Shown here: piece after piece, positions 505 through 12,499 of the stretch
Position numbering within the stretch: position 1 is the stretch's first letter
Layout of the letters: each line of letters starts with the position of its first letter
Virus genome (UHGV): UHGV-0112872
DNA from: a virus
DNA: 12,499 nt
Strand: one strand, 5' to 3'
Position numbers and translations under genes: made by a program
Notes under the pieces: model-generated
What the model was told of the DNA's origin: nothing
Seen by the model: only the letters and a program-made list of their open reading frames with translations
Databases searched by the model: none

Positions 505-1536
505 TCAAAAACTTGCTATTGATGTTGGTAGTGTTGCCAGCGGATTAAACCGTAATGCAGTTTCCAGGTGATCCGGTGCCAGATGTGCGTAACGCATAGT
601 CATTTTTATATCGTGGTGTCCGAGAATTTTTTGTAAGGCCAGAATGTTTCCACCCGACATCATGAAGTGCGCCGCAAACGTATGGCGCAGAACGTGTGTC
701 AGTTGACCGCGAGGGAGCACGATAGACGTTTTTTCCATCACGGATAAAAATTGAAAATAGCAGTCTGTAAAGAAATTGAACCCATCAAGCGCCATGATCT
801 CTTCGTAAAGCTCTTTACTGATAGGGATGCTTCTGTTTTTCTTCCCCTTCGTTCTTACAAAGGTAATTCGGTATTTGGTCACCTGTGAGCGGGTAAGATT
901 TACGGCTTCACGCCAACGTGCGCCTGTGCTTAAGCATATCTTAACTACCAGTGCCAGAATTGGGTCCTGACGTTTGCAATCAGCCAGCAATTCAACAATC
1001 TGCTCATGGGTAAGCCATGCCATCTCTTTTTCTGCGATGGTGAATTTTCGCATGTTCTCCAGTGGGTTCGGATACGACCATTCGCCCAGGCGGGATAGTT
1101 CGCTAAAAACACTACTTAGATAGCTTTGCTCCAGGTTAATGGTGACCGGGCTTGCTCCTTTCTTCCATTTCTCGCTGAAGTAGATCTCACCTGTCAGGCG
1201 TTTATCTCGATAGTGGGCAAACATTTTAGATGTGAGATCAGTTGCAAGGGGATTGCCCAGAGCGTCAACCATCAGCAGCAATTTGTCATAGACATGCTGC
1301 CCAGCTGTCAGAGATTTACCATGTAGTTTGAACCATAGCTCAACCACGTCTTTCAGTGTTCGACGATCCACTGATTCACCCAGCCAGGGCTTTGCTTCGG
1401 TTTCTTCCATCGTGTGGCGCTCAAAAGCCAGTGCTTCGCCTTTGGTGACGAATTGTTTACGCACACGACGCCCACTACGTCCGGCGGGGTAACATTCGCA
1501 AAGCCATTTTCCTGTGGTGAGTTTTCGTACAGCCAT
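505..1536 (-). CDS. int: Tyrosine integrase, P2/186 family
   Basis: Six-frame ORF 505..1692; start assigned to the internal ATG at 1536, preceded by GGAGGG (product begins MAVRKLTTGKW). Tyrosine-recombinase signature segments present: ICLSTGARWREA (Arg), HVLRHTFAAHFM (H-x-x-R), GHHDIKMTMRYAHL (catalytic Tyr region). Overall pattern matches my recollection of the P2 Int C-terminal domain. Confidence 0.9.
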   Translation of the reverse strand: MAVRKLTTGKWLCECYPAGRSGRRVRKQFVTKGEALAFERHTMEETEAKPWLGESVDRRTLKDVVELWFKLHGKSLTAGQHVYDKLLLMVDALGNPLATDLTSKMFAHYRDKRLTGEIYFSEKWKKGASPVTINLEQSYLSSVFSELSRLGEWSYPNPLENMRKFTIAEKEMAWLTHEQIVELLADCKRQDPILALVVKICLSTGARWREAVNLTRSQVTKYRITFVRTKGKKNRSIPISKELYEEIMALDGFNFFTDCYFQFLSVMEKTSIVLPRGQLTHVLRHTFAAHFMMSGGNILALQKILGHHDIKMTMRYAHLAPDHLETALRFNPLATLPTSIASF

Positions 1537-1724
1537 AAAAAATGCCCTCCAATAGAGAGCATTTTTACTGTATGTATAACCAGTGTCAATGTATGAAATC
1601 CTGCGACCATACATCTCACTGAAGCCATAATGAAGTAGGCTATTCTTTTTGCTATGTGAGCATGTAACTTTTGCGGTTAACCTGTGGCTCATTTTTATTT
1701 TAGGCGCAGATATAAAAGCAAAAG

Positions 1725-1931: not shown

Positions 1932-2501
1932 CTATTTAACATACTTGACTGTTAAACTTATAATTTTACCAATTATTTCAATGTCTTCTATCTTGCATTC
2001 GAAGGCTCTGTTTCCACCCTCGACGAAGATTCTTCCACCGGGTAAACGAGTAATGTCACGGATCGTTATTTCGCCATCAATACTTATTACCCATTTACCA
2101 TCACGTATATCATCAAATTCCTTATCACAAATAAATTCAGAATTATTATCTGTGATTACAAAAAGATTCTTGAATGCCGACGGTAGAAATTCTCTATCGA
2201 AAATATAAAAACCGTCTTCACACAAGGCCCCATCAGATAATACATATTTAGCAACTTCCATAGTATTTGTATTACCTGAAGTTTGCTTTGAACCATGCCC
2301 GGTTGTGAGCCAATTAAGCGAGGTGCCTGTTTCAAGGGCGCACTGGATTACCCATTCTGCTGGGAATGAGTCACGCATGTAGCGTGTGGCGAGTGTACTT
2401 TTAGAGATTCCTAAATGATCGCACAACGCCTGTCGAGTCTTGAATCCATAAGCTTCTACCATGCGCTCTATAGCGCCTCGTCCGCCTTTCTCCAAATTCA
2501 T
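1932..2501 (-). CDS. cI: CI-like immunity repressor (186-type), HTH DNA-binding protein
   Basis: About 189 aa from ATG at 2501 (GGAG 7 nt upstream; an alternative in-frame GTG lies at 2507). Helix-turn-helix-like segment TRQALCDHLGISKSTLATRYM near the N-terminus. Leftward orientation upstream of int and divergent from the Apl/CII operon matches 186 architecture. Confidence 0.75.
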   Translation of the reverse strand: MNLEKGGRGAIERMVEAYGFKTRQALCDHLGISKSTLATRYMRDSFPAEWVIQCALETGTSLNWLTTGHGSKQTSGNTNTMEVAKYVLSDGALCEDGFYIFDREFLPSAFKNLFVITDNNSEFICDKEFDDIRDGKWVISIDGEITIRDITRLPGGRIFVEGGNRAFECKIEDIEIIGKIISLTVKYVK

Positions 2502-2507
2502 GGTCAC

Positions 2508-2626
2508 TCCAAGTGAACTTTTATCTTGACGATTTCACTGTGCGATCGTATGTTTATGGTGTTCACAAAATACAAACGATCCGTATTCGTCCTGATTAAT
2601 CATCATTAAACGAGGAATGTTGCATC
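2508..2626. promoter_or_regulatory. Lysis-lysogeny switch region with candidate rightward early promoter (pR-like)
   Basis: Candidate sigma70 promoter reading rightward: -35 TTGACG (2526-2531), 17-nt spacer, -10 TATGTT (2549-2554). Hexamer repeats GTGAAC (2513-2518), TTCAC (2534-2538), GTTCAC (2561-2566) flank and overlap it, consistent with operator half-sites. Confidence 0.5.
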
Positions 2627-2848
2627 ATGAGACCTAACATTTCAATCACTCTTACCACGCCTCATGTGACTATTGAACGCTATAGCGAGCTGACAGGGCT
2701 ATCCATCGATACCATCAATGACATGTTGGCTGATGGACGCCTTATCCGTCACCGTCTGCGCAAAGATAAAAAACGCGAAAAAGTGATGATCAACATAGCA
2801 GCAATGACCGTTGATGCGCTTTCAGAATGCAATCTAAACCTTAATTAG
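2627..2848 (+). CDS. Apl/Cox-like small DNA-binding protein (excisionase / early regulator)
   Basis: 73-aa ORF, first gene after the switch, GAGGA upstream; HTH-like segment [26 protein letters not shown]. Assignment rests on position and size. Confidence 0.55.
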
Positions 2849-2880
2849 TTCGATTCTGAGATACATCAGAGGCATTGACC

Positions 2881-3390
2881 ATGTTTGATTACCAAGTTTC
2901 CAAACATCCACATTTTGATGAAGCCTGTCGTGCATTCGCATTGCGCCACAACCTGGTGCAACTGGCAGAACGTGCTGGCATGAATGTGCAGATTCTGCGG
3001 AACAAGCTGAACCCAGCTCAACCTCATTTATTAACCGCACCAGAAATCTGGCTGCTTACCGATCTGACTGAAGATTCAACGCTGGTAGATGGTTTTCTGG
3101 CACAGATTCATTGTCTGCCATGTGTACCGATTAATGAGGTGGCAAAAGAGAAACTGCCACATTACGTCATGAGTGCAACCGCAGAGATCGGGCGTGTTGC
3201 TGCAGGTGCGGTATCTGGCGATGTAAAAACCAGTGCAGGCCGTCGTGATGCGATCAGCAGCATTAACTCTGTTACACGACTGATGGCGTTGGCTGCTGTT
3301 TCATTGCAGGCCCGTTTACAGGCTAATCCTGCGATGGCGAGTGCAGTTGATACCGTGACTGGCCTCGGTGCTTCATTCGGTTTGCTGTGA
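2881..3390 (+). CDS. cII: CII-like transcriptional activator (phage 186 CII family)
   Basis: 169 aa from ATG 2881 (AGAGG upstream; the ORF track begins at an in-frame TTG at 2875). Sequence [24 protein letters not shown]...[32 protein letters not shown] closely matches what I recall of 186 CII; length agrees. Confidence 0.8.
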
Positions 3391-3397
3391 GGTGCTT

Positions 3398-3694
3398 ATG
3401 CTGACGAAAGAACCATCATTTGCATCGCTGCTGGTAAAACAAAGCCCGGCAATGCACTACGGTCACGGCTGGATCATGGGTGAGGATGGTAAACGCTGGC
3501 ATCCATGTCATTCACAAGATGAATTGCTGTCTGAATTGACCACGAGGAAACGGAGAAAGTCAAAATGTATGCAGCGGAAAGTGAAGTGGTTTATCAGTTT
3601 CGTTACAGAGGGGAGAGTTATTCAGTACCTGAAGATGATTTGCTCTGTTGTTATCCGTCGTTGTCGGGCGATGGCAGTTACTTTTTCACGCTAA
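3398..3694 (+). CDS. Hypothetical small early protein; 3' extent uncertain
   Basis: ATG 3398 preceded by GAGGTG. The first ~55 codons look protein-like; the remainder overlaps the next ORF in another frame and reads as Arg/Cys-rich low-quality sequence. Confidence 0.35.
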   Translation: MLTKEPSFASLLVKQSPAMHYGHGWIMGEDGKRWHPCHSQDELLSELTTRKRRKSKCMQRKVKWFISFVTEGRVIQYLKMICSVVIRRCRAMAVTFSR

Positions 3695-3789
3695 GGGATG
3701 GGACGTTTTTACGGGGAGAGCAGGTTAAAGAAACGATACGAAAAAATGTATCTCCTCTTGAACGTTACCGTAAGAACAAAGAACGATAG
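3565..3789 (+). CDS. Hypothetical small early protein (74 aa)
   Basis: Strong RBS GGAGAAAG about 6 nt upstream of ATG 3565; balanced composition (MYAAESEVVYQFRYRGESYSVPEDD...). Confidence 0.55.
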   Translation: MYAAESEVVYQFRYRGESYSVPEDDLLCCYPSLSGDGSYFFTLRDGTFLRGEQVKETIRKNVSPLERYRKNKER

Positions 3790-3811
3790 TTGCGTTTTGG
3801 GGATATGAATT

Positions 3812-4153
3812 ATGGCAATTAATGGCGCTGCGGCGACTGTTCCATTAAGCCCCGGTGAACGCCTGAATGGACTTAATCACATTGCGGAGTTAAGGGCGAA
3901 AGTATTTGGCCTGAATATTGAGTCAGAGCTTGAGCGGTTTATTAAAGATATGCGTGATCCACGGGATATCAATAACGAACAAAATAAACGAGCACTGGCT
4001 GCCATATTCTTTATGGCAAAAATTCCAGCTGAACGTCATAGCATCAGCATTAATGAGCTGACCACTGACGAAAAGCGGGAGCTGATTAAAGCAATGAATC
4101 ATTTTCGTGCAGTGGTGAGCTTATTTCCCAGACGGCTAACCATGCCGAATTAA
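3812..4153 (+). CDS. Hypothetical early protein (113 aa)
   Basis: ORF with GGGGA upstream of the ATG; same orientation and tight packing within the early operon. No motif recognised. Confidence 0.55.
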   Translation: MAINGAAATVPLSPGERLNGLNHIAELRAKVFGLNIESELERFIKDMRDPRDINNEQNKRALAAIFFMAKIPAERHSISINELTTDEKRELIKAMNHFRAVVSLFPRRLTMPN

Positions 4154-4220
4154 CCAATAAATAAAATTCATGGCGTAAACCCGCCGGGCATCCCTTTATC
4201 TAAATTCAGGAGAATTGATT

Positions 4221-4454
4221 ATGCGTAATATTGAAACCCTCACGACTAAAACCGGACCGGATGATGCAGGTCTTAATCTTTTACTGACAGAGGCCCGACT
4301 TGAAGAACGTCGGGCAAGGGCTGAGGCAATGGCTGCCCGCCTTGATAGCCTGGCGTGTCATATCACATCCCGCCAGCTAAACCACGTCGAAGCAGCAGAA
4401 CTGCTGCGTGTGACCGCTGAAGCAATCCAGAACGAAGCGCAGGAGATCCACTAA
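4221..4454 (+). CDS. Hypothetical early protein (77 aa), helical and Ala/Arg/Glu-rich
   Basis: AGGAGA 7 nt upstream of ATG 4221; its TAA stop overlaps the next start (TAATG). Confidence 0.55.
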   Translation: MRNIETLTTKTGPDDAGLNLLLTEARLEERRARAEAMAARLDSLACHITSRQLNHVEAAELLRVTAEAIQNEAQEIH

Positions 4455-4681
4455 TGGCTGATGCAATGGATCTCGTACAGCAGCGCGTTGAAGAAGAACG
4501 CCAGCGCCATATCCGTGCTGCCCGTGCCAAAACACCGGGCGTGTCTCGCGTGCTTTGCATTGAATGTGAAGCACCAATTCCGCCAGCACGCCGCCGTGCC
4601 ATTCCTGGAGTGCAGCTTTGCATTACCTGTCAGGAAATCGCAGAGCTGAAAGGCAAACATTACAACGGAGGTGCTGTATGA
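4454..4681 (+). CDS. TraR/DksA-family C4 zinc-finger protein
   Basis: 75 aa with paired CxxC motifs (CIECEAPIPPARRRAIPGVQLCITCQ), typical of DksA/TraR-type zinc fingers found in P2-like early regions; AGGAGA upstream. Confidence 0.8.
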   Translation: MADAMDLVQQRVEEERQRHIRAARAKTPGVSRVLCIECEAPIPPARRRAIPGVQLCITCQEIAELKGKHYNGGAV

Positions 4682-5535
4682 GCACCATCCTGAAATGGGC
4701 GGGAAATAAAACCGCAATTATGTCCGAACTGAAAAAATACCTACCTGCTGGCCCGCGACTGGTTGAACCTTTCGCGGGTTCCTGTGCTGTGATGATGGAG
4801 ACGGATTACCCCAGCTATCTGGTTGCGGATATTAATCCTGATTTAATCAACCTCTATAAAAAGATTGCCGCTGATTGCGAGGCGTTTATATCGCGGACCA
4901 GAACTTTGTTTGAGGAAGCAAACAGTGACCTAGCTTATTACAACATAAGGCAGGAGTTTAATTACTCAACTGAAATTACTGATTTCATGAAAGCGGTATA
5001 TTTCCTGTATCTCAATCGTCACGGTTACCGTGGTTTATGTCGCTATAACAAGAGCGGGCATTTCAACATCCCCTACGGTAATTATAAAAATCCGTATTTC
5101 CCTGAAAAAGAAATTCACGCATTTGCAGAAAAGGCCCAGCGAGCAACGTTTATCTGCGCCAGCTTTGATGAAACGCTGGCGATGTTGAAGGCGGGGGATG
5201 TGGTGTATTGCGATCCGCCGTATGACGGCACGTTTTCCGGTTATCACACTGACGGCTTCACTGAAGATGACCAGTATCACCTGGCATCCGTTCTTGAACA
5301 TCGGTCATCAGAAGGACATCCAGTCATTGTTTCTAACAGTGACACATCCCTGATCCGTTCGCTGTATCGCAATTTCACTCACCACTACATCAAGGCAAAA
5401 CGCAGCATCGGCGTGTCAGCTGGCGAGAGTAAATCTGCAACAGAAATCATTGCTGTTTCCGGGTCGCGCTGCTGGATGGGATTTGATCCTTCGCGTGGCG
5501 TGGATAGTTCTGCCGTGTACGGAGTACGTGCATGA
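4678..5535 (+). CDS. dam: Dam-like DNA N6-adenine methyltransferase
   Basis: 285 aa; ATG 4678 overlaps the upstream stop (ATGA). AdoMet-binding motif I ([11 protein letters not shown]) near the N-terminus and catalytic DPPY ([10 protein letters not shown]) downstream, the Dam-type arrangement; N-terminal KWAGNK is Dam-like. Confidence 0.85.
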
Positions 5536-7946
5536 GTCATGCCGATATGAACAACTGCTGCGGCTTTAACGAGGCTGCCGCAGCATTTTCATGGAACGGC
5601 CCGAAAAAGGCCATTAACCCTTATCTGGATCCGGCGGAAGTTGCGCCGGAGTCTGCACTTTCAAACCTGATCACTCTGTACGCTGCCGATAACGAGCAGG
5701 AACAACTGCGCCGCGAGGCACTGAGTGAGCAGGTCTGGGAGCGTTATTTCTTTAATGAATCCCGTGATCCTGTCCAGCGCGAAATGGAGCAGGATAAGCT
5801 CATTAGCCGGGCAAAGCTGGCGCATGAGCAGCAGCGTTTTAACCCGGACATGGTCATTCTGGCAGATGTCAGCGCCCAGCCTTCTCATATCAGCAAGCCG
5901 CTGATGCAACGTATCGAATACTTCAGCAGCCTGGGCAGGCCAAAGGCTTATTCCCGCTATTTGCGTGAGACGATTAAGCCATGTCTGGAGCGACTGGATT
6001 GTGTACGTGACAGTCAGCTATCTGTTTCTTTCCGTTTTATGGCAAGCCATCAAGGGCTGGAGGGGCTGCTGATCCTGCCTGAAATGAGCCAGGATCAGGT
6101 GAAACGCCTGTCCACCCTGGTAGCAGCGCATATGAGCATGTGTCTTGAGGCCGCTTGTGGTGATTTGTACGCCACCGATGACGTTAAGCCAGAAGAAATC
6201 CGCAAGACATGGGAAAAGGTGGCAGCGGAAACCCTGCGTCTGGATGTTATCCCGCCTGCGTTTGAGAAACTTCGTCGGAAAAGAAACCGCCGCAAACCTG
6301 TGCCCTATGAACTCATACCGGGTTCGCTGGCACGTATGCTTTGCGCCGACTGGTGGTATCGAAAATTGTGGAAGATGCGTTGCGAATGGCGGGAAGAGCA
6401 GTTGCGTGCTGTCTGTCTGGTCAGCAAAAAAGCATCTCCCTATGTCAGCTATGAAGCAGTGACGCATAAACGTGAGCAGCGCCGCAAGTCGCTGGAGTTT
6501 TTCCGTTCTCATGAACTGGTGAACGAAGACGGAGACACGCTGGATATGGAAGATGTGGTAAACGCCAGCAGCAGCAACCCGGCACATCGCCGCAATGAGA
6601 TGATGGCCTGCGTTAAAGGTCTGGAGCTTATCGCGGAAATGCGCGGTGACTGCGCCGTTTTCTACACCATCACCTGTCCGTCACGTTTCCATTCCACGCT
6701 CAATAACGGCAGACCAAACCCGACCTGGACAAATGCGACGGTAAGACAAAGCAGTGATTATCTGGTCGGCATGTTTGCTGCATTTCGTAAGGCGATGCAC
6801 AAAGCCGGATTGCGGTGGTATGGCGTGCGGGTGGCTGAGCCGCATCATGACGGTACTGTGCACTGGCATCTCATGTGCTTCATGCGTAAAAAAGACCGCC
6901 GCGCCATCACTGCATTACTGCGTAAGTTTGCCATCCGTGAAGACCGCGAGGAACTGGGCAATAACACGGGGCCACGCTTTAAGTCTGAGCTGATTAACCC
7001 GCGCAAAGGAACGCCGACAAGCTACATCGCGAAATACATCAGTAAGAACATTGACGGGCGTGGTCTGGCTGGCGAGATCAGCAAGGAAACGGGTAAATCC
7101 CTGCGTGATAACGCTGAATACGTTAATGCCTGGGCGTCTCTGCATCGTGTTCAGCAATTCCGCTTCTTTGGCATTCCGGGGCGTCAGGCTTACCGTGAAC
7201 TGCGATTGCTGGCTGGTCAGGCGGCAAGGCAGCAGGGTGACAAAAAAGCAGGTGCGCCGGTACTGGATGATCCGCGTCTTGATGCCATTCTGGCTGCTGC
7301 TGATGCTGGCTGTTTTGCCACCTACATTATGAAGCAGGGCGGCGTGTTGGTTCCCCGCAAATATCACTTGATCAGAACCGCTTATGAAATCAACGAAGAG
7401 CCGACCGCCTATGGTGATCACGGTATTCGTATTTATGGCATCTGGTCACCCATTGCAGAGGGCAAGATCTGCACTCATGCAGTGAAGTGGAAAATGGTTC
7501 GTAAGGCCGTTGACGTTCAGGAGGCGGCAGCCGACCAGGGCGCTTGCGCCCCTTGGACTCGTGGCAATAACTGTCCCCTTGCTGAAAATTTGAACCAACA
7601 AGGGAAAGACAAATCAGCTGATGGGGATACCAGGACGGACATTACCCGCATGGATGACAAGGAGTTGCACGATTACCTGCACAGTATGAGCAAAAAAGAG
7701 CGCCGGGAACTGGCTGCAAGGTTACGCCTGGTGAAACCGAAACGGCGTAAAGACTACAAACAGCGAATTACAGACCATCAGCGACAGCAGCTCGTCTATG
7801 AACTGAAGTCCAGAGGATTTGATGGCAGCGAGAAAGAGGTCGATTTACTCCTTCGCGGCGGCAGTATTCCGTCAGGAGCAGGCCTGCGTATCTTCTATCG
7901 GAACCAGCGTTTGCAGGAAGATGATAAGTGGCGAAACCTGTATTAA
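5532..7946 (+). CDS. A: Replication initiation endonuclease, gene A type (rolling-circle / HUH)
   Basis: 804-aa ORF, ATG 5532 overlapping the dam stop (ATGA) with GGAG upstream. HUH-type metal-binding motif (HWHLMCF) and downstream paired tyrosines (YIAKYISK), as in P2 gpA-family proteins. Confidence 0.9.
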
Positions 7947-8014
7947 TTACGCGGGTTAACAATTCGTGCTCTTAATAATACCAGGCATATCAGGCTGATG
8001 AACGTAAAAAAACG

Positions 8015-8058
8015 TTTTACATCAGTAAGATTATTATATACTGTAAATATAAACAGTG
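8015..8058 (+). promoter_or_regulatory. SOS-regulated promoter with LexA box
   Basis: Near-consensus LexA operator TACTGTAAATATAAACAGTG (8039-8058; CTGT-N8-ACAG). It overlaps a candidate -10 TATACT (8037-8042); -35-like TTTACA at 8016-8021. Immediately upstream of the Tum-position gene, as in the 186 SOS operon. Confidence 0.7.
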
Positions 8059-8099
8059 GTTATGCATACAGTATTGCTTGTGGTGTCATAGGAGGAAAG

Positions 8100-8288
8100 A
8101 TGCAGGACTATTTTTTGGAGTCTTTGAAGCTCCAGCGCATTGATTTTTTTCTTAAGCTTGTAGCGGCTAGTGAGTGTAGTGATGAAGAGAAGGGGCTGGC
8201 CCTGCAATGGGTTTCTGAACTAACAGATGAACTCATGGCAAAAATCAGAACCCACGAATACAACCGCTCAATGGATGTCATCAGCTGA
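8100..8288 (+). CDS. Small protein (62 aa) in LexA-controlled operon, occupying the position of the 186 Tum antirepressor
   Basis: ATG 8100 preceded by GGAGGA; first ORF downstream of the LexA box. Identity as a Tum-like antirepressor is positional inference only. Confidence 0.5.
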   Translation: MQDYFLESLKLQRIDFFLKLVAASECSDEEKGLALQWVSELTDELMAKIRTHEYNRSMDVIS

Positions 8289-8298
8289 GGTGACTTTT

Positions 8299-8532
8299 AT
8301 GCGCATTGAAATAATGATCGATAAAGAGCAGAAGATTAGCCAGTCTACCCTGGATGCCCTTGAATCCGAGCTTTACCGCAATCTGCGCCCCCTGTATCCC
8401 AAAACGGTAATTCGTATCCGCAAAGGTAGCTCTAACGGTGTGGAACTGACCGGACTGCAACTGGACGAAGAAAGAAAACAAGTGCTGAAAATTATGCAGA
8501 AGGTGTGGGAAGACGACTGCTGGCTGCATTGA
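8299..8532 (+). CDS. dinI: DinI-family protein
   Basis: 77 aa beginning MRIEIMIDK and ending WEDDCWLH. It aligns by eye with E. coli DinI (MRIEVTIAK ... ETWESADDWF): shared MRIE start, DAL..EL motif, central hydrophobic core, C-terminal acidic W-containing tail. GAGGTGA upstream. Confidence 0.8.
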   Translation: MRIEIMIDKEQKISQSTLDALESELYRNLRPLYPKTVIRIRKGSSNGVELTGLQLDEERKQVLKIMQKVWEDDCWLH

Positions 8533-8668
8533 TAGGTTTCGTTTGTAATGAGTCATGTTTTTTGAGTCCGATAGTAGACAGCTAGAGGGATAAATGATTA
8601 ATAGATAGATTAAACATAGTGATGGGCGTAAAATCGCGCGCATTTTATTGGCAACGGATCTGAACTCA

Positions 8669-9562
8669 ATGGCGGATAAGACTCAATCAGTAAGTATTGT
8701 GTATCAAGGCAAAGCTCTCGACGATCATAAGATGGATATTCTTTCGTTTGCGAAAAGTTTGCAGGGGCTAGGTGAGGCTATCTACTCTGCAAATGAGATT
8801 GTAAACGGAGGGCGAGACATTGAAGTTAACGTTGACGCTGAATTGATAGCCGGTTCCTTTGGGTTTGATATTGAGGTTGTACAACATCTAGCTAATGCTA
8901 AAGATGTTGTACAAATTTTAGGTTTGTCAGCCATTCCTTTAGCCGTTGGCGGTGCTACAGTTTTAGAGGTTCTCAAGAAGCTTAACGGGCGTAAGATCGA
9001 CATAGTCGAGAAAGCTAACGGTAGTGACAAAGTTAAGCTGAAAGTCGATGGTGAAGAGATTGTTTGCTCTGAAGATGTCGAAAAAATCGTTAATGCCCCA
9101 GAGATTCGTAAGGCTGTTGACGCGTTTGTCAGACAGCCTCTGTTACAAGATGGTATCGACAATTTTGTGGTAAAAAAATCGCGCACCTCTAAGAAAGAAA
9201 TCCTCAAAATTCATAAAGATGAGGCAGAAGAGTTTAAGTCGCCAAAAGTTCTCTTTGAAACCAAAGAAGAAGTTGACGAATTTGAAACAACCGTGACATT
9301 CGTTTCGGCGCATACTGACAAAAAAAGTGGCTGGCGTGTTGAGTTTGGCGGTGAAAAGCGCAATGTCAGAATGGAAGATAATGAGTTCATCAAGCTTGTT
9401 ACTGGACCAGACGCCCCCAAAATTTTTGGCGAATTGTTTGCTGTGAAGATGAAGAAAATTGTGAAAGATTCCGGTGGCCAGGTAGACGAAAAGTTATCGA
9501 TCATCAAAGTGGGTCGACACTTTGCCGCCAAAGATAGAAAAATAAAACCTGATGCGGATTAA
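8669..9562 (+). CDS. Cargo module 1, gene 1: uncharacterised 297-aa Lys/Glu/Asp-rich protein with one internal hydrophobic segment
   Basis: Long ORF (ATG 8669; alternative in-frame TTG 8648) in an AT-richer block. Hydrophobic stretch ILGLSAIPLAVGGATVLEVL around residues 85-105, then a long highly charged region. No catalytic motif recognised. Confidence 0.6.
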   Translation: MADKTQSVSIVYQGKALDDHKMDILSFAKSLQGLGEAIYSANEIVNGGRDIEVNVDAELIAGSFGFDIEVVQHLANAKDVVQILGLSAIPLAVGGATVLEVLKKLNGRKIDIVEKANGSDKVKLKVDGEEIVCSEDVEKIVNAPEIRKAVDAFVRQPLLQDGIDNFVVKKSRTSKKEILKIHKDEAEEFKSPKVLFETKEEVDEFETTVTFVSAHTDKKSGWRVEFGGEKRNVRMEDNEFIKLVTGPDAPKIFGELFAVKMKKIVKDSGGQVDEKLSIIKVGRHFAAKDRKIKPDAD

Positions 9563-9564
9563 AA

Positions 9565-9828
9565 ATGTCTATAGATATTAGTGTGTTAGGATGGTTGGGG
9601 CTGCTTGTTGCAGCTCCAGCTATATTTATAGGTGCTAGAGTGGCTATACGTAGCCTGCTCGATCGAGTTATTGTCGAAACAAAAGTTTCTATCACTTATA
9701 CTGATGCAAACAAAAATGTCTATAAAACAAATATTTATATAAACAATGATGATGAGTTAATAAAGCTCATCGATGATATAGCAGAGAAAAATAAGCGTGA
9801 GAGGAAGGAGTCAGCCTCTCATGCCTGA
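9565..9828 (+). CDS. Cargo module 1, gene 2: small single-pass membrane protein (87 aa)
   Basis: ATG 2 nt after the upstream stop (tight coupling); N-terminal hydrophobic helix GWLGLLVAAPAIFIGARVAI followed by a charged soluble tail. Confidence 0.55.
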   Translation: MSIDISVLGWLGLLVAAPAIFIGARVAIRSLLDRVIVETKVSITYTDANKNVYKTNIYINNDDELIKLIDDIAEKNKRERKESASHA

Positions 9829-10237
9829 ACAAAAGAAAACAAGCGGTAAAGCAGTCGGTGTTACAGGTGGCGGCGGTGTAGGCCTTTTCCTAATAAAGCT
9901 GGCTAGCTTCATTACAGATCCAACATGGAAAGACCTTTACATTGCTTCAATACCGATGGTGTCAATTCTTTTAAGCGAAGTTTTTACTTTTGCATGGACG
10001 ATTTATGCTGTTGATCCGCAAGAAATCAAACTGAAAAGGCGGTTGAAGGCTCTGAAGAAGCAAGCCGAAGCAGTTTTAAATGCACCATCGTCCCCTGTTT
10101 CTCCAGAAATGCGAGAGAAAGCGCAGGCTCGTTACGACGTGATCTGTGGAATTGAAATGGGAATTTACCCCCTCTCAATTGTAAATACGCTAGATGGAAA
10201 AGTATCCCCCACAGCGCAAACGCCGGACGTTAAATAG
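9821..10237 (+). CDS. Cargo module 1, gene 3: small two-helix membrane protein (138 aa)
   Basis: ATG 9821 preceded by GGAAGGAG and overlapping the upstream gene by 8 nt. Two hydrophobic segments (GVGLFLIKLASFI; IASIPMVSILLSEVFTFAWTIYAV) followed by a Lys-rich helical tail. Confidence 0.55.
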   Translation: MPEQKKTSGKAVGVTGGGGVGLFLIKLASFITDPTWKDLYIASIPMVSILLSEVFTFAWTIYAVDPQEIKLKRRLKALKKQAEAVLNAPSSPVSPEMREKAQARYDVICGIEMGIYPLSIVNTLDGKVSPTAQTPDVK

Positions 10238-10300
10238 CAGTTTCTACTTTGCATGACTATGCTGCATGAAATCGCATGATCGTTTGAGGATCGTTTTTGC

Positions 10301-10328
10301 AAAAGCCCGCCAGAACTGGCGGGCTTTT
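10301..10328 (+). terminator. Rho-independent terminator closing the right-arm operon
   Basis: GC-rich inverted repeat GCCCGCC (10305-10311) / GGCGGGC (10318-10324) followed by TTTT (10325-10328) and preceded by AAAA. Confidence 0.7.
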
Positions 10329-10373
10329 GCGTAGAGCATGCATCTGCATGAAAACCACTACATAAAGCGGGCA

Positions 10374-10392
10374 GGCGTGGCGGGGATACGAG
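10374..10392. other. Candidate cos site (cohesive-end motif of P2/186-type phages)
   Basis: GGCGTGGCGGGGATACGAG followed by GCGCGCGCT. The first 13 nt match the 186 cohesive end as I recall it (GGCGTGGCGGGGAAAGCAT; P2 is GGCGAGGCGGGGAAAGCAC), and the flanking GCGCGCT resembles the sequence next to the P2 left end. These reference sequences are from memory. Confidence 0.6.
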
Positions 10393-10522
10393 CGCGCGCT
10401 AACTCTTGGCTTTGTTTCATAATCAAAAATGTGATCATTGAGATTATTCTTAAATTTGTGTTTGTCTATGAAATATCATTTCGCTTAACATTGTTTGAGT
10501 TAGGACTACATGAGAATAAAGA

Positions 10523-11098
10523 ATGCTTTTACCCGTAAGTATTACATCGTGTGGCTTGTATCACCCCTACTGGCATTTGGGAGAGCGCAACCCTCATAGC
10601 GATGAACTATCAAGGCAGATGATGGATTTTAAGGATGAAAATAATCGTAATCATCAAAGGGCCATTAACCGTTTTTCTCGATTAGCTATAGATAAGGTTG
10701 GGCGGTTAGTAATCAGAGGTGGCGGTGGGCGTTTTGTTGAGTCTCCTTTTTCGATAGCAGTTGTCCCGTCTCACACTGAAGGCAGAATTTCACCGGCTTT
10801 GATTGAGGTCGCCGAGCGAATCGTAAATGTTCACCGTCGGGGCATTGTTGATTGCTGTTTGGAAAGAACACGCACTGTTCCTAGCGCACATCGTGAAGGT
10901 GGAGATCGCTCAATTACTGGTCACATGTCTAGTATCAGAGTTAGGGGTGGTAACCTCATGGGGCGAAATGTGTTACTACTAGATGATGTTAAAACAACAG
11001 GCGGTAGTTTGTCTGCGTGTTTTTATTTACTGGAGTCTGCAGGAGCTGGAGTTATAATGCCATTAGCTCTGCTAGAAACTGCAAACTATGAGGAGTAG
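10523..11098 (+). CDS. Cargo module 2, gene 1: phosphoribosyltransferase (PRTase, type I) domain protein
   Basis: PRPP-binding signature VLLLDDVKTTGGSL near the C-terminus, the classic type I PRTase motif also seen in ComF-like proteins. Start uncertain: ATG 10523 has a weak RBS; in-frame ATGs at 10619/10622 are alternatives. Confidence 0.7.
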   Translation: MLLPVSITSCGLYHPYWHLGERNPHSDELSRQMMDFKDENNRNHQRAINRFSRLAIDKVGRLVIRGGGGRFVESPFSIAVVPSHTEGRISPALIEVAERIVNVHRRGIVDCCLERTRTVPSAHREGGDRSITGHMSSIRVRGGNLMGRNVLLLDDVKTTGGSLSACFYLLESAGAGVIMPLALLETANYEE

Positions 11099-12062
11099 CA
11101 AAGTGCACTCAGAAGAATTAAAAAATACACTTGGATTAGCTATTCAAATCGGGAAGCTAGCATCTGATCAAAGTGTATTAAAATTCTTTGAGCTTATCGA
11201 TTTTGATGTTATTCGTGATATACGCGACTTAACTGAGATGGTTAATAGCCACGGGTTTCTAAAAGATAAAATATCTGAGACTGATTTTCTAATAGCGAAC
11301 GCTGAATTGGAGAACCACCATGTTAATGGTGTGGAGCTAATACCATATGGGTCTGAATTCTATCCTCTTAGTTTAGCTTTTACTCCTAATCCACCATCAA
11401 TTCTCTACATAAAAGGGGATAAAAGTATACTCAAAGAATTGCCGGGTGTCGCAATTGTAGGATCCCGTGATACCTCCCCTGCAGGGGAAGAAATAACGAG
11501 GCGGATCACTAATCAGATAGTGTCTGCTGGGTATATTGTTGTAAGTGGGTTAGCAATAGGCACTGATGCGAATGCTCACAAGGCAACGTTACAGGCAAAA
11601 GGAAAAACCATTGCTGTCTTGGCGCATGGTCTTGAGGAGGCTAAGCCGAAGCAAAACAGTCGACTTGCTCAAGAGATTCTGGATAAAGGTGGTGCATGGA
11701 TTTCTGAGTATCCTATGGGTCGGCCGGCCCAGAAACAATCATTTGTACAAAGAAATCGGATACAAGTTGGATTATCTGCAGGTTCAATTTTAATCGAGGC
11801 TGCGTTAAATAGCGGAACGATAACTCAAGCTGAGTTTGCAAATAAGGCGAAAAGACCAGTGTTTGCGGTTGTACCTCACCTACCTAATAATCCGCTTAAT
11901 CTTAATTGTGAGGGAACAGTTGATTTAGTTAAGAGCAACATGGCTAGAGCGCTAAAAACAAAACGGGATTATGATGATGTGATTATGATCATAAATGAGT
12001 CCCGGGAGTATTTGTTAGAGCTAAAATGGCCAGGGAAACAGAGTACATTAGACTTGATTTAA
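11088..12062 (+). CDS. Cargo module 2, gene 2: DprA/Smf-like (SLOG / Rossmann-fold DNA-processing-A domain) protein
   Basis: Segments GVAIVGSRDTSPAGEE, VVSGLAIGTDANAHKATL, KTIAVLAHGLEE, SEYPMGRPAQKQSFVQRNRIQVGLS and RPVFAVVPHLP follow the conserved order of DprA/Smf cores. Overlaps the PRTase gene end; an in-frame GTG at 11103 with AGGAG 7 nt upstream is a plausible alternative start. Confidence 0.8.
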   Translation: MRSSKVHSEELKNTLGLAIQIGKLASDQSVLKFFELIDFDVIRDIRDLTEMVNSHGFLKDKISETDFLIANAELENHHVNGVELIPYGSEFYPLSLAFTPNPPSILYIKGDKSILKELPGVAIVGSRDTSPAGEEITRRITNQIVSAGYIVVSGLAIGTDANAHKATLQAKGKTIAVLAHGLEEAKPKQNSRLAQEILDKGGAWISEYPMGRPAQKQSFVQRNRIQVGLSAGSILIEAALNSGTITQAEFANKAKRPVFAVVPHLPNNPLNLNCEGTVDLVKSNMARALKTKRDYDDVIMIINESREYLLELKWPGKQSTLDLI

Positions 12063-12086: not shown

Positions 12087-12499
12087 CTAAATTTGATATC
12101 TCTCGAATTTTATAATTTCTTCACCGCTCCAATGATTAAATTCTTTCATTCTTTTTTGTAATGGTAATAATTCATTTTTCACAAATACCTTACTAGCTTT
12201 TTCTACATCCCCAAATCCCCCAACATTATTAGGCATTATCCCCATCATTTGTGGCGGCACACGATGCGCTGCCATCATGTCATCCCGACTCACGTTCTTG
12301 ATGTTAAGAAATTCATCCTTCGCCGCGACTTCTGACAACGGGATGATCTGAAGCCCGTCCTTTTTGCCGTTAGGCGAGTACATAAACAGGTTGCGGAAGT
12401 TGCCAGGGCCTTTGGCGCTTTTCATCGCATTGCGGAGGTTGTTCACATCCTCCTGGTTCTGCGCGGCATCGGTCATGTACATGATGAAGCCTGCATGAC
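12087..12499 (-). CDS. Portal-like protein (P2 gpQ position), C-terminal part; gene continues beyond the window
   Basis: Minus-strand ORF open to the window edge (...PPQMMGIMPNNVGGFGDVEKASKVFVKNELLPLQKRMKEFNHWSGEEIIKFERYQI). Leftward orientation next to cos matches the Q/portal position in P2/186; family assignment is by position and general resemblance only. Confidence 0.55.
   Translation of the reverse strand, partial: HAGFIMYMTDAAQNQEDVNNLRNAMKSAKGPGNFRNLFMYSPNGKKDGLQIIPLSEVAAKDEFLNIKNVSRDDMMAAHRVPPQMMGIMPNNVGGFGDVEKASKVFVKNELLPLQKRMKEFNHWSGEEIIKFERYQI

Follow-up and report, generated by a model that had tools for sequence, protein, structure and literature searches.

The stretch considered here, UHGV virus genome UHGV-0112872, comprises 12,499 nucleotides (nt) of DNA, all of which were analysed and are referred to as the window. 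It represents the left arm of an Escherichia coli prophage of the 186/Fels-2 type, which belongs to the P2 family (Peduoviridae; Table 1). Four of its genes form a block at the distal end of the early lytic (pR) operon and encode a DUF2732 protein, a TraR/DksA-family zinc-finger protein, a DNA adenine methyltransferase (Dam) and the replication initiator A. A preliminary description, made from the letters of the DNA, had recognised the last three as TraR-like, Dam and replication protein A genes and proposed that they form a translationally coupled block beginning at 4454. These identities are correct by Pfam, TIGRFAM and PDB matches (by Pfam for gpA), and the three genes are probably coupled as proposed. 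However, the beginning of the block has to be moved, as the chain opens one gene earlier with the DUF2732 gene (4221-4454), which follows a gap of 67 nt.

Table 1 Genes, motifs, junctions and predicted signals of the window (aa amino acids)
Feature	Position	Strand	Remarks
Integrase	505-1692	-	
CI repressor, 186 type	1932-2507	-	
Predicted early lytic promoter pR	2526-2554	+	TTGACG-N17-TATGTT; sole plus-strand promoter-like site in 2400-8400
Apl/Cox	2627-2848	+	
CII	2881-3390	+	
Fil	3398-3694	+	
DUF5347	3812-4153	+	
DUF2732 gene	4221-4454	+	P2 orf80 / 186 orf79 homologue; first of the overlapping chain; PF10809 4e-29; phrog_128; same gene by PGAP in an E. coli relative
Junction DUF2732/zinc finger, TAATG	4452-4456	+	TAA 4452-4454 and ATG 4454-4456 share one base
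TraR/DksA-family C4 zinc-finger protein	4454-4681	+	75 aa; PF01258, TIGR02419
Zinc-finger motif CIEC	4556-4567	+	
Zinc-finger motif CITC	4619-4630	+	
Junction zinc finger/Dam, ATGA	4678-4681	+	ATG 4678-4680 over TGA 4679-4681
Dam-family methyltransferase	4678-5535	+	285 aa; PF02086, TIGR00571
Dam motif I, PFAGS	4768-4782	+	
Dam recognition hairpin	5023-5088	+	GYRGLCRYN...NIPYGNYK
Dam catalytic motif DPPY	5212-5223	+	aa 179-182
Junction Dam/A, ATGA	5532-5535	+	ATG 5532-5534 over TGA 5533-5535
Replication initiator A	5532-7946	+	804 aa; P2 gpA type HUH rolling-circle nickase; PF05840, phrog_91
RNA hairpin in A	5556-5589	+	9-bp G+C-rich stem TGCTGCGGC/GCCGCAGCA, 12-nt loop, then UUUU; 24-57 nt into A; RNA fold
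A HUH motif, HWH	6861-6869	+	aa 444-446
A tyrosine pair, YIAKY	7023-7037	+	aa 498-502
Predicted origin (nick region) inside A	7550-7574	+	CCCTTGGACTCGTGGCAATAACTGT; alignment partners are the P2 nick site as annotated and the 186 origin
AT-rich cargo region	about 8000-12062	+	
Portal gene, 3' end	12087-12482	-	

Stop and start codons overlap at each of the three junctions inside the block, and the TAATG and the two ATGA sequences which had been pointed out before are indeed present (Table 1). Shine-Dalgarno (SD) sequences lie 6-8 nt before all three starts and within the preceding open reading frame (ORF), namely AGGAG at 4441-4445, GGAGG at 4667-4671 and GGAG at 5521-5524; the SD sequence of the DUF2732 gene is AGGAG at 4209-4213. 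Unlike these overlaps, the remaining operon junctions in the window are gaps of +32, +7, +22 and +67 nt. In the last of them (4154-4220) a terminator equivalent to 186 tR1 and to the P2 terminator was looked for, but the gap is without stable structure (z = -0.03). The start of the methylase was taken as ATG 4678, which is used by annotated relatives (KP12, Fels-2 and PGAP on E. coli NCTC 13148), whereas a mechanical ORF list gives TTG 4618.

Conservation of the chain architecture extends over P2, 186 and Fels-2 as well as over prophages from about 40 species of enterobacteria, and the end of the operon is tightly abutted into A in P2, 186, Fels-2, SopEPhi, ENT90, EtG, FSL SP-004, ESSI-2, SEN5 and SI7. 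For a count of the junctions, ORFs were chained from the zinc-finger gene to A in 41 loci, consisting of 4 phage or window sequences and prophages of GTDB species genomes; the choice of start codons was heuristic in this set, and a few large overlaps are probably miscalls. The 89 junctions obtained comprise 58 of -4, 11 of -10 and 3 of -1 as well as 12 gaps, so that 77/89 overlap overall, and the pattern holds whatever the gene content between zinc finger and A. Where the zinc-finger and Dam genes are adjacent, their junction is -4 in 19/19 related loci. In most relatives the gene before A overlaps it by 4, 10 or 1 nt, and the 1-nt overlap between the DUF2732 and zinc-finger genes is also present in P2, 186, Fels-2 and KP12. 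Isolated 4-nt overlaps are common among bacterial genes. Coupling is considered more than chance because the overlaps are conserved, and not because a single overlap exists. Stop/start overlaps, SD sequences inside the upstream ORF and conservation among relatives are thus all found at this locus, as in a coupled chain.

An indication of what such a chain does comes from phage 186, whose GenBank record states that translation of the A protein apparently requires translation up to the end of orf84. In 186 the ORF before A overlaps A by 4 nt, as Dam does in the window. The genes in between are different, since in 186 the place of Dam is taken by an exonuclease, DUF5405 and a PAPS-reductase-like protein. 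By analogy, translation of A probably depends on upstream translation here as well: ribosomes ending one ORF would start anew at the following initiation codon or make it accessible, and A would be made only via translation through the cargo gene. The coupled expression suggested in the preliminary description is therefore probably right, supported by the conserved overlaps and the 186 record.

Close to the beginning of A, RNA folding predicts a hairpin followed by a U tract (Table 1), which is a plausible counterpart of the intragenic terminator tM1 of 186; attenuation at this place is likewise plausible, the hairpin being a candidate only. In the 186 record tM1 is the terminator expected for lytic transcripts when the A gene is untranslated, and it is located 85-112 nt into A. 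The window hairpin lies at a different position in A and has an unrelated sequence. Translation of the first A codons would cover the hairpin and the U tract, while in the absence of A translation the element would terminate the transcript as tM1 in 186.

The window hairpin ranks 1 of 50 windows scanned within A, and in 12/13 lineages the rank is 0-4 of about 50 windows per A gene. Counterpart hairpins of -17 to -21.5 kcal/mol exist in Fels-2, SopEPhi, P2, FSL SP-004 and about 20 species loci. A distance of 4-12 nt separates their ends from the conserved (F/Y)xW(N) codons which follow in A, and they differ in arm sequence and encoded peptide (CCG..AAA, TTGG..AAVV, KGGP..EAAG, PGSV..TTG, AVAD..KAMA, KRSAG..AAAS). 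Where the N-terminus of A is short (186, ENT90 and EtG types), no hairpin exists at this place. In synonymous resampling the real hairpin was stronger than the resampled mean in 11/11 lineages. Covariation was analysed in GTDB species genomes instead of the IMG/VR relatives of A, which are too close (97-99 %); with fixed columns, 72.7 % of the cells were paired vs 27-60 % in slid controls, with few double changes.

Several observations weigh against a terminator selected at the RNA level. A terminator scan of the window does not call the hairpin at 5556-5589, in which the loop is 12 nt long and the U tract has no more than four U. In the individual lineages the p values of the resampling are only 0.01-0.29, as the codons for Gly (GGN) and Ala (GCN) can pair with each other. 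Much of the stability follows from the encoded Gly...Ala peptide, and selection on the RNA is unproven because the peptide itself favours the hairpin. The covariation is also weak, with a mostly invariant inner helix and 16/500 shuffles reaching the observed score; its support is modest because the lineages pair in different registers and the inner helix hardly varies.

The same observations bear on the possibility that the overlaps are mere genome compaction, with each gene initiating independently from its own SD sequence and with neither coupling nor attenuation. Strong SD sequences precede all three starts, and the good SD sequence on every gene would allow independent initiation, which speaks against a strict dependence of A on its neighbours. 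ATGA is moreover the commonest overlap type in bacterial operons, and the hairpin, missed by the terminator scan, is largely explained by the peptide. Compaction nevertheless appears unlikely as the whole explanation, given that the overlaps persist across all cargo combinations (77/89 junctions in the 41 loci), that the other junctions of this operon in the window are gaps, and that in the 186 record A translation depends on upstream translation.

The terminal gene of the chain matches PF05840 (Phage_GPA) with 427.6 bits (3.5e-128) and phrog_91, 'nicking at origin of replication', with 7e-291. Its product carries the HUH motif and the paired tyrosines, and the predicted origin is located in its own gene (Table 1); by these features A is the P2 gpA type of HUH rolling-circle initiator.

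The product of 4454-4681 is assigned by its domain matches to the TraR/DksA C4 zinc-finger family with a CxxC-N17-CxxC ribbon, as it scores 43.5 bits against PF01258 (cut-off 24.9, 3e-11) and 65.8 against TIGR02419 (cut-off 59.7). The PDB matches are YbiI (5e-11) and F TraR (3e-9; 5W1S, 6N57), the structure of which was determined in complex with RNA polymerase. With these two proteins it shares the C4 zinc ribbon CxxC-N17-CxxC, the core PIPxARR...PGVxLCxxCQ, a similar length and a short N-terminal helix with acidic residues (MADAMD). It differs from F TraR in reaching only 40 against the TraR equivalog cut-off of 108, and the N-terminal helix is not confidently alignable. By analogy with F TraR, the protein would probably bind the secondary channel of RNA polymerase.

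The third gene of the block encodes a protein with a D12 domain (PF02086, 256 bits vs a cut-off of 22, E 5e-76), which also scores 321 bits against TIGR00571 (cut-off 114.85). Both the DPPY motif IV and the S-adenosylmethionine motif I are present; motif I reads PFAGSC, and the second Gly of FxGxG is replaced. Such a replacement is tolerated in T4 Dam (FCGGL). Like E. coli Dam (PDB 2G1P/4GOL), the phage enzyme belongs to the alpha-group of the D12 class, and the two are about 50 % identical over residues 4-260 (E 3e-73). Conserved in phage Dam are K9, R95, Y119, L122, R124, N126, N132, P134, Y138 and DPPY of the E. coli protein. Among these are K9, L122, R124, P134 and Y138, which are reportedly the residues that read GATC according to work of Horton and co-workers in 2006 and which correspond in the alignment to K6, L120, R122, P132 and Y136 of phage Dam. 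The window enzyme is thus predicted to be a GATC-type methyltransferase that would form N6-methyladenine at GATC.

There are, however, differences to E. coli Dam which weigh against this specificity: N120 is replaced by R118, R137 by N135, and five residues after DPPY are missing. Phage Dam also has a C-terminal extension of 25 residues and is encoded by a phage-borne gene of a lytic operon. With 286.9 bits it stays below the cut-off of 441 of the chromosomal-orthologue model NF008152 and is, as far as these scores and alignments indicate, a phage-carried paralogue of the Dam family and not the chromosomal orthologue. Both the changed residues, including the loop after DPPY, and the failure of the host-Dam equivalog model would fit methylation of a site other than GATC. 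Such a specificity is hardly to be expected at all, given the conserved base-contacting residues, the TIGR00571 score and the relationship to the Ec67 enzyme: phage Dam is 94 % identical to a cluster mate with the source name 'retron EC67 DNA adenine methylase'. A Dam methylase function of the Ec67 element, which is a prophage related to 186, was reportedly described in 1990 (Hsu et al. 1990, as cited in PMC8989520 and PMC7826664). The 90 % cluster to which the window Dam belongs comprises 4,038 members, the majority of which come from E. coli and Salmonella.

Other phages also carry orphan Dam enzymes (P1 Dmt, T4 Dam, VT-2, HP1), which are GATC methylases without a partner nuclease and with debated roles (PMC12707154, PMC7556043); T4 Dam is only about 22 % identical to the window Dam. 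A Klebsiella prophage methylase 'KamA' was considered as a relative and rejected, as KamA-G belong to restriction-modification systems and are unrelated (PMC9684165). Nothing on P2-family Dam was found in PMC11126057, PMC12455584 and PMC9826266.

The position of the predicted pR matches that of 186 pR, between cI and apl. No plus-strand promoter-like site was found from pR to the end of A, and hence no internal promoter for Dam or A. Dam would accordingly be made only in lytic growth, together with A, because it belongs to a CI-repressed lytic operon and is without a promoter-like site of its own. A methylase restricted to lytic growth would methylate GATC on fast-replicating phage DNA more quickly than the limited host Dam. 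Packaged genomes would then be fully methylated and protected from enzymes cutting unmethylated GATC, and full methylation would also leave no hemimethylated sites for MutH and SeqA to recognise. Self-methylation of fast-replicating DNA before packaging is the most economical reading of the gene. Some orphan methylases are known to protect only DNA destined for export, and temperate phages are described as producing modifying enzymes when they are induced (PMC12707154). What phage Dam enzymes do in vivo is described as not understood (PMC12707154, PMC7556043).

Two points weigh against self-methylation as a protective function. All known hosts are Dam-positive, so that the need for a second Dam is only inferred, and GATC is neither avoided nor enriched in the window or in the whole of Fels-2, which leaves no signature of selection. 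A count of GATC sites had been put forward as a check. It gave 48 observed vs 44.9 +/- 6.3 expected in the window and 117 observed vs 111.5 +/- 9.2 expected in the whole of Fels-2; a match to expectation in both neither supports nor refutes an anti-restriction role. Packaging had been suggested as well, but a role in it similar to that in P1 is unlikely. P1 packaging needs methylated pac sites, whereas P2-family phages package from cos sites, and cosR is found in the P2 record.

A feature of the operon promoter itself concerns GATC. The GATC at 2544-2547 is located exactly 1 nt upstream of the -10 hexamer of pR, and a second one is found at 2578-2581. The layout TTGACA-N12-GATC-N-TAnnnT exists in 29/30 distinct related switch regions, which represent about 7 immunity types and have unrelated surrounding sequences; it is absent in 186, SopEPhi, ENT90 and locus L121. 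No correlation was found between the pR GATC and carriage of a phage Dam: six loci with the GATC lack Dam, whereas SopEPhi encodes Dam but lacks the GATC. The activity of pR may be sensitive to Dam.

These observations enter into a different view of the enzyme, in which it serves replication or regulation: fast full methylation would block SeqA binding and MutH nicking and set the state of the pR GATC. This is possible, though clearly less probable than self-methylation for protection. It would agree with the co-expression of the methylase gene with the replication initiator, with the conserved pR GATC (29/30 switch regions) and with the presence of Dam in all hosts, which leaves few host-range barriers keyed on unmethylated GATC, and the reviews which call the role of phage Dam not understood leave room for it (PMC7556043, PMC12707154). 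Opposed to this are the lack of correlation between the pR GATC and Dam carriage and the lack of a GATC cluster at the predicted origin (7550-7574), to which the nearest GATC is that at 7466. Furthermore, the slot in front of A also holds methylases of other specificities, a better fit to general modification or anti-restriction. A role of the methylase in lysogenic conversion, altering the epigenome of the host from the prophage, is very improbable, although about 22 % of complete E. coli genomes have the block and the gene shows the lower GC content typical of acquired cargo. The gene is located within the CI-repressed operon, where the genes on either side of it are required for lytic growth alone; inside the operon it is not preceded by a promoter-like site, and the host already methylates GATC. 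As a whole, the locus is best explained, with good though not full confidence, as the chained end of the pR operon for which coupling, attenuation, lytic self-methylation and TraR-like binding to RNA polymerase are proposed.

Between the zinc-finger gene and A lies a slot of variable content, which differs even among loci whose A proteins are 76-89 % identical. The slot is empty in ENT90 and 8 species loci and holds Dam alone in 14 loci. In further species loci it contains Dam together with a PAPS-reductase-like protein, with a C5 cytosine methylase or with a second, distant D12 methylase; others have a DnaQ-like exonuclease, DUF3850/ASCH, a PAPS-reductase-like protein alone or proteins without known family. 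DUF5405 occupies it in P2 and FSL SP-004 and is also part of the 186 slot. Methylases directly before A are also encoded in SI7, SEN5, ESSI-2 and 3LV2017, and the genes of the slot are nearly always joined by 4-nt overlaps. Dam is one of several interchangeable cargo genes in this slot, most of which are DNA-modification enzymes. In the window its GC content is 47.1 % vs 54.8 % for the zinc-finger gene and 53.2 % for A, and among near relatives Dam is 92-96 % identical vs 97-100 % for the two flanking genes. It behaves as exchangeable cargo because both its GC content and its identity are lower than those of the flanks, and it looks separately acquired or faster turning over.

About 12 close IMG/VR relatives have an extra gene of about 300 nt, the size of DUF3850/ASCH, between zinc finger and Dam. 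In another IMG/VR relative (L071, about 3148-3998) Dam is apparently frameshifted; its uninterrupted alignment is limited to residues 129-284, and the flanking coordinates are shifted by 1 nt. An apparent deletion in relative L032 (about 2870-3147) fuses the DUF2732 and zinc-finger genes.

For P2-like phages three hotspots have been published, which extend from A to portal, over Z/fun and from tail/integrase to cI (bioRxiv 10.1101/2024.10.15.618418), and 8 % of defence systems were located somewhere between integrase and GpA (PMC13586616). The slot between zinc finger and A is described in neither bioRxiv 10.1101/2024.10.15.618418 nor PMC13586616. A joint reading would make it a fourth, unlisted cargo hotspot of the P2 family, located inside an operon and exchanging DNA-modification and nucleic-acid enzymes. 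The initiator would be made only once the counter-defence cargo has been translated, the hairpin in A would enforce this dependence as a terminator, and the fixed pR GATC would render the operon promoter sensitive to the methylation carried out by the cargo. In its entirety this combination is doubtful. The variable modification-gene slot, the positionally conserved hairpin in A and the pR GATC are leads and not findings.

The block itself is already known and routinely annotated, and there is nothing new in the module as such. At a query coverage of at least 80 % it is present in 1,217/5,426 complete E. coli genomes. PGAP annotates it in E. coli NCTC 13148 as DUF2732 family protein, TraR/DksA family transcriptional regulator, DNA adenine methylase and replication endonuclease with identical overlaps of 1/4/4 nt. 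The 3.8-kb block is 95.7 % identical at the DNA level to that of Klebsiella phage KP12, and a coverage of 80 % or more is reached by 53 phage records. A relative of A is encoded in at least 594 IMG/VR stretches; in the best 80 of these (A 97-99 % identical), Dam is directly upstream of A in 80/80. Fels-2, SopEPhi, RE2010, KP12 and the retron-Ec67 prophage have the four genes in identical order with overlaps of 1/4/4 or 1/4/10 nt. The Fels-2 proteins are 73 % (Dam) and 89 % (A) identical to those of the window. In Fels-2 and SopEPhi, A is annotated with a GTG start and a 10-nt overlap, whereas the window has ATG and a 4-nt overlap. Only allelic differences separate the window from these five blocks.

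As a very common prophage module, found in about one fifth of complete E. coli genomes, with a methylase family reported in 1990, the block matters little as found. Its residual value is that of a natural system for asking why phages of Dam-positive hosts carry a second Dam, and whether P2-family phages tie the synthesis of their initiator to the translation of exchangeable DNA-modification cargo.

Further genes lie elsewhere in the window. A gene for a PRTase-like protein (10523-11098; PADLOC ShosT, 3.7e-14) overlaps by 11 nt a DprA-like gene (11088-12062; ShosA 2.8e-70; Pfam DNA_processg_A). By these matches the pair at 10523-12062 is a Shosta / DprA-PRTase anti-phage system, situated in the known defence hotspot between A and portal. 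A 304-aa protein encoded at 8648-9562 matches the candidate defence family PDC-S42 (7.8e-44), and the small ORFs behind it (9565-9828 and 9797-10237) have no Pfam or PADLOC family match. Downstream of A, as in 186, Fels-2 and SopEPhi, lies a DinI-like (Tum-like) gene at 8227-8532, the true start of which is probably internal to the listed ORF. The Fil-family ORF at 3398-3694 (98 aa; 186 Fil has 75 aa) overlaps by 130 nt an ORF in another frame matching phrog_4312 (3565-3789, 74 aa); of this pair, PGAP annotates only Fil in a near-identical E. coli prophage. Between integrase and cI, an ORF of 63 aa on the minus strand (1725-1916) corresponds to a YdcA family protein in an E. coli relative. KP12 has a 1.7-kb ATPase gene in place of this ORF, which is therefore another variable site.

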